Origin: Branchiostoma belcheri
Lineage: Eukaryota
Reading direction: 5' to 3'
DNA length: 64,000 nt
Assembly (NCBI RefSeq): GCF_001625305.1
Contig: NW_017802379.1
Span: forward strand, 4,341,479 to 4,405,478
Part shown: positions 15,901 to 21,581 of the stretch, piece by piece
Layout: each line of letters begins with the position of its first letter
Position numbering within the stretch: position 1 is the first letter of the stretch
Position numbers and translations under genes: made by a program
The notes under the pieces: model-generated
Database searches by the model: none
The model's input: the letters and a program-made list of their open reading frames with translations, nothing else
What the model was told of the DNA's origin: nothing

Positions 15901-18900
15901 CGCATCTTTCCTGAGTAGCTAGCTGCGCATCCATTCTTCCTGATTTTATACAAACAGACCTGTCCTTGGTGCTGAACACCATCCCGACAATCAACTATCC
16001 ATTCCTTTGAGCTCGACCCCCCCCCCCCACCCACACACACATGGGCAAACGTATCTGTCCTTGGTGCTGAAAACAGCATCCATGTATGCTTTGTGCCGTG
16101 AGAAATATCGGTACCATTTCTAATGAGAAAAGTCTTACTTACGAGGCTCAGGGATGCACGGTGGCGGGGTTCCACAGTTGGTCGTCTCGGAGGACGGTCC
16201 CTCGCACGGCCGGGCGGTCACACACACCCTGGTGCGCGTCGTCTCTCCGTCGCAGACCTCCGAGCACTGTGACCAGTCTGTCCAGCTGCTCCAGACGCCC
16301 GGAGGGACCGGAGTGGTGGTCGCAGGGGCGGTGGTTGTCGTGGGGGGAGGGGGCGTCGGGTTGTTGGGATTCTGATCTAAAAGAGCGAGGAAGCATGGAT
16401 CTCTAAACGAGTCATCATGACGAGCATACTGAAACATTTTTGAAAGTCAGCTCACATGGGAACACAAGGTTGTCATGGCGATAGCATCAAATCTACTCAT
16501 GCATACATACATACATACATACATACATACATACATACATACATACATACATACATACATACATACATACATACAGGTAAAGAAAGAAGAGACAGTATAA
16601 GGAGAAGTAGTCGTACTTCCTGGTTGTGGCCCACAGTTGATCTCGTCAGAACCGTCCCCGCAGTCGTTGGAGCCGTCGCAGTGCCACTCCTGCCACACGC
16701 AGAATTCACCATGGGCGCACTCAAACGCGCCCGGCCAGCAGCGAGACTCAACTGCCGGACCAAACAACGATACATCATCGGTTTTTAAAATTTATTAACT
16801 AGAAAAGTGCAAAGCAAATGCATATGGTCTACTCTGTTAATTCTTACTCAAAACACATTAATATATATATGGCGATAGCAGTTTAAATCCCTCCTGCTAT
16901 AAAATTGCAACATGATGTAACACAACACCAGTTACCATGGTGGTAGACTGTGGTAGACAGTCTGGTTCAGGTCATTGACCTTCTGTGTTTGGAGAGGAGG
17001 AAACAACGTCAAATAGAGCAAAAACAACGTCGGGATATGGGACACGTTTGTTGAGTCAATGAGATCCTTTGTCATTCCTTGTATCTGTATCTGTATAGCC
17101 GGTATAACCGCCCTTGGGCGTACGAAGGACCAAAACGCCAAAATTTGTGCTCAACGAAGGAACTAAATTCAACAGAGAAGGGACTAATTTCAACAGAGAA
17201 TGAGCTAACTTCAACAGCGAAGGCGCTGTGCTCAGCGAACGTCCTGTGCTCAGCGAACGTACTGTGCTCAGCGAAGGAGCTGTGTTCAGCGAACGCACTG
17301 TGCTCAGCGAAGGAGCTGTGCTCAGCGAAGGGCTGTGTTCAGCGAAGGGGCTGTGCTCAGCGAAGGGGCTGTATTCAGCGAAGGGGCTGTGTTCAGCGAA
17401 CGCACTGTGCTCAGCGAAGGGGCTGTGTTCAGCGAAGGGGCTGTGTTCAGCGAACGCACTGTGCTCAGCGAAGGGGCTGTGTTCAGCGAAGACCCTTTGC
17501 TCGATCAGTGTTGATGCCCTAACGGCTAGGTAGAATTATAGCACCATCTTTTCCTTTCCAATTAGACCCGACAGTCCTACAATTTATCCGACAGTCCTGC
17601 AATTTATCCAACAACCGGATTCAAAATATTACAATCATGAACTTTTAAGATGATTGTTATAAAATAGAGGAATGAATGACGACCTTTATTGGGCATTTCG
17701 CCACACTTGGTTAAGTATAGATCACAACAAAACAAGATACGAACGAACAGATACATGGTCTATTTGTATTTGTAAATCTTGGAGAGTGTGTTGGTTTATT
17801 ACGGTTCCACGCACTGTGAATGATACACACGATGTAGACCATGGTCTCGTGCTTTCCATGATGTTTGGGTCTGATACTTGTACATTACTTTGTACAAGGG
17901 GGACTTGTTTTCTTGCGACACATAGAAAACTGTCTGATCATATTTTACCTACAACAATGAAACACTAACTAAAGAATATTTTTTAATACTAGTACCAGAC
18001 ACGTACGCTGTCAACACTGTTTTTTCTTCAATATGCTGTTATCTGATCTTAACCGCCATTGTTCTCATACTGAGACTCGTACGGAATGCAGGAAATCGCA
18101 CCTCTGTGCCAGTCGTCCCTAAGCGGTTGACAAAGGTGATTAGGTGATTTGGAGCTTGGGGGATTAGGGTGGGTCTCTCGACAACTTTTACGCTTTTATA
18201 TAGCCTCTACCAGGCTTGGGGAGGCAGCTGGAAAGAGTAGAAATCGGCCAAATAGAGAGATAAGCATGCCAAGGGGAGTTTGTCCGTTGAGATAACAGTT
18301 CGCCGGCTAGCTTTTATACCGAATTGAATTTTCTAGAAACACAATCACTTAAAAAATAGTAGGTCATCTTGATACAAATTACAAGATGTCAAATAGCTTT
18401 CCTACGCCAAACGCCATGAACTCGAGAGCACAAGACAAGTTTGGGCGACCCCACGTAGTATGACTACAAACACATGGTTCGCGTCACCTTCAAAACACTT
18501 ATTAATAAGTATAGTACAGTCAATTAATGCGTGGAAAACAGCTCTATAAGAAGCTAGAATGGCTGCACTGTGTGTACTATTCACAGTGAGTGGTGCCGTA
18601 AAACCAAACACTATCATCCAAGATTTACAAATGCAGATAACCGATCTAGGCCAAGCTATATATTCTGGAATGCAGTACTTTTTTGAAGTAACGTCATCCA
18701 TGTATATGTTTTCATAGTGCGTAGAGCAAGGAGCCAGTAAAACAGTTAGGAGAAGCCAGAAAGGCTGCATTGGGTTTTGGGTTATTTTTGACGTGTTTTT
18801 TAGGCTTTGTTAACGGGGTTTCTTTTTGCGATGGGACTTTTTTGGGTGAAAAAATTCCAGTGCAAAAAAGAATCCCGATAAAAAGCCTAAAATTAAAAAC

Positions 18901-21581: not shown

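Follow-up and report, generated by a model that had tools for sequence, protein, structure and literature searches.

The 64,000-nucleotide stretch of Branchiostoma belcheri DNA analysed here (the window; NCBI RefSeq assembly GCF_001625305.1, contig NW_017802379.1, positions 4,341,479 to 4,405,478 of the forward strand) contains, on its minus strand, a TMPRSS6-like serine protease gene whose intron 4 houses a 2438-bp element with long inverted arms, very probably a foldback-type DNA transposon. The host gene carries LDL-receptor class A, thrombospondin-1 and trypsin exons, and was rebuilt as eleven exons with GT-AG junctions using an orthologue (P0123) as guide. The reconstructed product of 569 amino acids is identical to XP_019621150.1, and the window therefore represents the RefSeq haplotype of B. 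belcheri. A word-indexed protein search with 235 amino acids of concatenated host exons (E<=1e-30) missed XP_019621150.1 and was thus a false negative. Intron 4 (16752-19708, minus strand; GT...AG, phase 1) is 2957 nt long and lies between an upstream exon at 19709-19837 and a downstream exon at 16617-16751, both on the minus strand and each encoding an LDL-receptor class A repeat in the reconstructed spliced product. An initial annotation, made from the letters of the window, had placed a foldback-type element in an intron of a protease gene, and the exact translation of the exon-intron model confirms that location. The element and one copy of its flanking hexamer account for 2444 nt of the intron and leave 513 nt, so that the element makes up 82% of it.

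The inverted repeat spans positions 17121-19558 of the forward strand. The left arm (17121-17837, plus orientation, 717 nt) begins 5'-TACGAAGG and the right arm (18949-19558, minus orientation, 610 nt) ends CCTTCGTA-3', as defined by repeat search and gapped alignment, and together they make up 54% of the element. Before joining, the inverted-repeat search returned two blocks, 17332-17837/18949-19454 (506 nt, 97%) and 17121-17332/19347-19558 (212 nt, 99%). At a minimum length of 60 nt and a maximum distance of 10 kb, the whole window contains no inverted repeat other than these arms; their 40-nt terminus has exactly two occurrences there, inverted relative to each other, where zero are expected. 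In the gapped alignment the arms match perfectly over 158 nt and with 4 mismatches over a further 452 nt, a single 107-nt indel lying within a tandem array. Inverted arms of about 0.6-0.7 kb, as first annotated at 17121-19558, are thus present, and the long hairpin that they can form is near-perfect rather than perfect (4 mismatches in 610 aligned nt besides the indel). RNA folding of the element gives -1544 kcal/mol, against about -647 kcal/mol for shuffled sequences, with 607 base pairs between the arms.

Each arm is modular. In the left arm, the flanking domain (17121-17218, plus orientation) consists of TAC, one 32-nt unit and three 21-nt units of the GAAGG...TCAAC type, the last being detected by Tandem Repeats Finder as a period of 21 at 17156-17223. 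The outer domain (17215-17491, plus orientation) is an array of an 18-bp unit, GAAGGGGCTGTGYTCAGC, with 15.4 copies, a 54-bp higher-order period and one 17-nt unit. The inner domain (17492-17837, plus orientation) is unique sequence except for a 20-bp repeat present twice at 17568-17613. The right arm mirrors this order, with 9.4 copies of the 18-bp unit at 19295-19464. Matches to the 18-mer pattern number 14 in the left arm and 9 in the right, whereas 0.02 are expected, and the 107-nt indel between the arms corresponds to six array units, one of them 17 nt long. Written in register, the outer 94 nt or so and the array of each arm form a single series of related units, of which the 32-nt unit reads GAAGGACC...GTGCTCAAC. 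The outer units and the 18-mers share a GAAGG...TCA(A/G)C design, so that the outer terminus represents the same motif in an older and longer form. The layout of a tandem array followed by an inner segment is therefore as first described; the subrepeat, given there as 15 bp, is 18 bp by Tandem Repeats Finder, and the outer terminus, described as unique, is built of related 32- and 21-nt units. Long terminal inverted repeats whose arms contain flanking, tandem-repeat outer and inner domains, mirrored on the two sides, are the structural characters of foldback elements.

The arms are abutted directly by the hexamer TGGGCG, at 17115-17120 on the left and 19559-19564 on the right. An allelic locus from a second B. 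belcheri assembly (L003; GCA_025402995.1, protein KAI8507233.1, in the same 90% protein cluster as XP_019621150.1) has the intron but not the element, and its hexamer is single, reading CGCCGA on the gene strand. Alignment of L003 with the window stops at window position 19561 and restarts at 17122, the two segments overlapping by 6 nt on L003; identity in the flanks, compared over 200 and 221 nt, is 99.5%. On the gene strand the window junctions read GTGTGTTA-CGCCCA-(TACGAAGG...CCTTCGTA)-CGCCCA-AGGGCGG, while the L003 junction reads ...GCTGGTGTGTTA-CGCCGA-AGGGCGGTTATACC..., that is, GTGTGTTA-CGCCGA-AGGGCGG. Since L003 lacks both arms and the middle and holds a single hexamer, the whole 2438 bp entered as one unit and the target was duplicated. 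The hexamers first taken for a target-site duplication are accordingly just that. The foldback element is recently inserted and is polymorphic for presence and absence among B. belcheri haplotypes.

The ends of the element read TACGAAGG...CCTTCGTA, with TA...TA termini. As TA also precedes the target, the duplication could formally be 7 or 8 bp long, the ends then being offset by 1-2 nt; only with 6 bp does the inverted repeat stay perfect up to its final base. A near-palindrome at the target, CGCCC-TT-GGGCG, is not centred on the duplication. A duplication of TA only, as in Tc1/mariner elements, would leave both hexamers at the empty site, where L003 has one.

The element is likewise absent from a third locus, L004 (XP_078680387.1), which comes from the B. 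belcheri haplotype of a hybrid between B. floridae and B. belcheri and falls in the same 90% cluster. An indel of about 200 bp removes the target there, for which reason L004 is uninformative on the duplication. Positions 4880-5060 of L004, compared with window positions 19690-17080, have lost about 200 bp of intron including the target and are otherwise very divergent; the loss could be an old indel or a deletion tied to a past excision. In the B. floridae-type orthologue (L002) the intron is 104 nt long and contains no element.

The middle domain (17838-18948) comprises 1111 nt of non-coding mosaic. It contains no open reading frame (ORF) of more than 135 amino acids from stop to stop, a Pfam search of six ORFs of the element gave no match, and no transposase is encoded in this copy. 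Nothing reached the gathering score in Rfam. The sub-threshold matches were of the generic microRNA-hairpin type, on a nested miniature inverted-repeat transposable element (MITE), together with a microsatellite artefact: a (CATA)19 tract at 16498-16575, just downstream of host exon 5, accounts for a mir-297 match of 50.8 bits against 90. A variable middle without transposase coding capacity, here a mosaic including MITE fragments, is a further foldback character. One of these fragments, at 18196-18310 (plus orientation), belongs to a second MITE family with the terminus CTAGCCTCTACCAGGCTT and is 84-90% identical to 11759-11865, 11909-11958 and 14426-14482. This family has a full copy of about 200 bp in the window at 11757-11960, with fragments at 14426-14482 and within the foldback middle. 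The middle also holds, at 18549-18648 (plus orientation), a diverged direct repeat of the right arm's inner end and of 14 nt beyond it; the part at 18563-18648 matches the innermost 86 nt of the arm in direct orientation with about 82% identity. A partial third arm copy had been annotated at about 18530-18640, and it is real, with these boundaries.

The nested hairpin MITE occupies 18771-18948 (plus orientation, 178 bp), lacks about 19 nt at its left end and folds with a z score of -9.1. CTGCAT is found on both sides of it, at 18765-18770 and 18949-18954, and once 18771-18954 is taken out, the right arm aligns collinearly with its paralogous segment at 18549-18648, which thus represents the uninterrupted site of the nested MITE. 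Full copies of the family end TACTCTCC...GGAGAGTA. One copy lies upstream of the protease gene in L003 (about 873-993) and L004 (about 798-932), with an 8-bp duplication, CCCGAAAA, later mutated at 1-2 positions, and the window is empty at the corresponding site, 23642-23649. Another is present in an allelic pair of loci, L005 (3637-3811) and L006 (1906-2077), with a perfect 8-bp duplication, TATCGTTA. The nested hairpin, which the initial annotation had recognised as a MITE, is therefore a member of a multi-copy, polymorphic family that makes 8-bp duplications, with copies at two other loci. Its occurrence at three independent loci in about 220 kb (four if the allelic L005 and L006 are counted apart) indicates a family that is probably abundant. 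That the nested MITE made a simple 6-bp duplication is rejected, as full copies have 8 bp and the nested copy is without its left 19 nt or so. The inner boundary of the inverted repeat (18949/17837) falls, to the base, where the nested MITE is inserted (CTGCAT, 18765-18770). The 100 nt left of the nested-MITE junction hold two degenerate segments that repeat the arm's inner end in direct orientation, at 18549-18648 and 18705-18745.

Taken together, these features make it highly probable that the element is a non-autonomous class II (cut-and-paste) DNA transposon of the foldback type, inserted as a unit in intron 4. The template described for foldback elements consists of flanking, tandem-repeat outer, inner and middle domains (PMC4079207), and this structure arose independently in several superfamilies (PMC4079207; PMC4168063). 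Foldback transposons such as Drosophila FB, Tetris and Galileo/Kepler/Newton, and TU of sea urchins, have long arms with three domains and a variable non-coding middle, as found here; like the present element they also have arms differing in repeat number and a target duplication, and they are mostly non-autonomous (PMC4079207; PMC4168063). The repeat unit, by contrast, is 18 bp here, as against about 220 bp in Tetris and about 140 bp in Galileo. Target duplications are 9 bp in Drosophila FB and 8 bp in TU. The 6 bp seen here also differ from the 8-10 bp of Tetris (PMC4079207) and the 7-8 bp of Galileo (PMC4168063). The Mutator-related foldback group (FB, Tetris and Tm1; 8-10 bp, typically 9) does not accommodate the element, as the L003 site sets an upper limit of 8 bp and speaks for 6; nor does Galileo of the P superfamily (7 bp, rarely 8, with the consensus GTANTAC), which the target TGGGCG(TA) mismatches.

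No sequence similarity links the element to any of these foldback transposons, and its host is a cephalochordate. Polinton/Maverick elements have inverted repeats of several hundred bp, but are coding elements of 15-20 kb with 5'-AG...CT-3' ends. The present element, non-coding and 2.4 kb long with TA...TA ends, resembles them in its 6-bp target duplication (PMC10045372). No description of an amphioxus foldback element was found in the open-access literature, curated repeat libraries lying outside the scope of that search. The Zator-1 'palindromic' transposons of B. belcheri and B. floridae are likewise non-autonomous class II elements, recently or currently mobile and polymorphic; they have 33-bp inverted repeats and 3-bp TAA/TTA duplications, whereas the arms here are 610-717 nt and the duplication 6 bp (PMC12905397). 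Zator, with its 3-bp duplication and inverted repeats of about 33 bp, was rejected on these two characters.

The most likely superfamily, in a tentative assignment given somewhat less than an even chance, is IS3EU/GingerRoot, to which the combination of TA...TA termini and a 6-bp duplication points. The termini of IS3EU families are always TA..TA and their duplications are usually 6 bp (PMC10045372), while GingerRoot has been reported with 5'-TA...TA-3' in 72 of 77 copies and with a duplication length of 6-8 bp, most often 6 (PMC6839031). Both characters are present in the element. GingerRoot elements are 3.9-12.9 kb long with inverted repeats of 100-150 bp (PMC6839031), and tandem arrays are not reported for them, whereas the element here has long arms with arrays and no transposase.

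Several observations weigh against the assignment or against the wider reading of the element as a mobile foldback transposon. The assignment draws on only two short characters, in a copy without a transposase; the inverted repeats of GingerRoot are far shorter than the present arms; and if the duplication were 7 or 8 bp, with ends not quite symmetric, P- or hAT-like enzymes would be indicated. The filled allele is found in one assembly only. Neither the window nor about 152 kb of sequence from other Branchiostoma loci (L001-L006, of which L005 and L006 contribute 77 kb of B. belcheri sequence) holds a second copy of the arms, and a family is therefore only putative. A metagenome scan for the 26-nt terminus gave no match, as did a protein search with the arm ORF aimed at ORFs called in other copies, and exact look-up of the arm ORF and of the ORF of a neighbouring retrotransposon (see below) matched no record.

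It is somewhat unlikely, if still a serious contender, that the element is a foldback element of another superfamily (hAT-, P/Galileo- or Mutator-like), with a true duplication of 7-8 bp (TGGGCGTA) and ends offset by 1-2 nt. Because TA stands before the empty site, duplications of 6, 7 and 8 bp all reproduce the filled allele, and the clear 8-bp duplications of the nested MITE family (TATCGTTA in L005; CCCGAAAA in L003 and L004) show that an enzyme making duplications of this length has acted on this genome. A relationship to Mutator is assumed for most foldback elements (PMC4079207), and Galileo, a foldback-like member of the P superfamily, makes duplications of 7-8 bp (PMC4168063). Against this, the inverted repeat is perfect to its very ends only if the duplication is 6 bp, a 7-8-bp reading strips the terminal TA from one end, and the 9-10-bp duplications of Mutator are excluded by the empty site. 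The terminal TACGA, moreover, does not fit YARNG, the terminal consensus of hAT elements.

Explanations that involve no transposition of a foldback unit fare worse. The single arm copy in all sequence at hand (the window and L001-L006) would also be expected of a one-off insertion, whether of a palindromic fragment captured in double-strand-break repair or of a local inverted duplication made by template switching. This is improbable: the empty allele holds no arm or middle sequence, and the element was thus not made from local DNA; an exact 6-bp duplication abutting perfect inverted termini is the signature of transposase integration; the flanking, repeat and inner modules match the foldback template (PMC4079207); and the middle domain has itself gathered transposon debris, as old mobile elements do. 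An artefact in the RefSeq B. belcheri scaffold, arising from a chimeric or fold-back read or from collapsed haplotypes, had been named in the initial annotation as the case that would overturn it. The presence of the filled allele in one assembly, and the high heterozygosity that makes amphioxus genomes hard to assemble, lend it some colour; nevertheless it is very improbable, since fold-back reads give perfect palindromes without a spacer, not arms differing by 4 substitutions and six array units around a unique middle of 1.1 kb, and would not produce a 6-bp duplication at a site that is clean and single-copy in another assembly. A precise insertion with its target duplication does not fit such an origin. 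The modular arms could each be an element of about 0.6-0.7 kb, inserted independently in opposite orientations around pre-existing intron sequence, and the inner arm boundary does coincide with a repeated segment; yet such a composite is scarcely credible, as neither the arms nor the 1.1-kb middle is present in the empty allele, and one duplication surrounds the whole unit, with none around each arm. The L003 site thus excludes a composite of two insertions, a local inverted duplication and a TA-only duplication, and in practice also an assembly artefact.

If the element is a foldback transposon, its mobility would depend on a transposase encoded elsewhere in the genome, which may bind the reiterated GAAGG...TCAGC motifs in the outer 270-380 nt or so of each arm. 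About 14-20 candidate sites per arm, the very terminus included, would be available to it. Such a transposase would pair the two TA-ended termini, excise the element and integrate it at a 6-bp staggered break, and the unequal arrays of the two arms may have arisen by slippage or unequal exchange within the array. Tandem repeats in inverted repeats can hold extra transposase-binding sites, as in Galileo (PMC4079207; PMC4168063), and we infer a motif-binding transposase acting in trans by analogy with the additional THAP-binding sites of the Galileo repeats. In the host pre-mRNA, pairing of the arms is predicted to give a stem of about 600 bp. No host function is shown by the present sequence evidence.

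The locus provides an allele-level example of a recent DNA-transposon insertion in a cephalochordate, with filled site, empty site and duplication in hand, and is usable as a presence/absence marker. Should the link to IS3EU/GingerRoot be true, one more superfamily would have evolved a foldback architecture independently. Long intronic hairpins of this kind are candidate sources of structural instability and of double-stranded RNA. It is doubtful, though conceivable, that the element is the first foldback derivative of IS3EU/GingerRoot and is still transposing in present-day B. belcheri populations, that its 18-bp arrays serve as transposase-binding sites, and that its hairpin feeds a small-RNA pathway acting on the protease transcript or on the transposon family.

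The protease gene contains a second recent insertion polymorphism, a non-LTR (long terminal repeat) retrotransposon of the long interspersed nuclear element (LINE) type, which lies in intron 10 at window positions 5796-9776, antisense to the gene. Its ORF (6415-9738, plus strand) is intact and encodes 1107 amino acids with endonuclease and reverse transcriptase domains (Pfam). This element is absent from L003 and L004, both of which are continuous across the site, and its short duplication reads approximately GTGT. Three polymorphic insertions in or just upstream of the protease gene (foldback, LINE and MITE) thus illustrate the share of transposons in amphioxus haplotype divergence. The gene also shows a shift of splice site: the B. 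floridae-type exon 5 ends TGCG|GT (L002 4830-4842, compared with window 16617-16640), in B. belcheri this donor is lost (TGTG|GG), and splicing shifts to one lying 21 nt downstream, which adds GPQPG to XP_019621150.1.

Beyond the protease gene, the window contains the genes for major vault protein (26900-35650, minus strand), whose product has 942 amino acids in the other assembly, and for the Golgi pH regulator (42044-44356, plus strand). The Golgi pH regulator exon matches the B. belcheri protein with 100% identity and that of B. floridae with 96%. Across the region of these two genes, locus L001 of assembly GCA_025402995.1 is only 86-96% identical to the window, indicating a very high haplotype divergence in B. 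belcheri.

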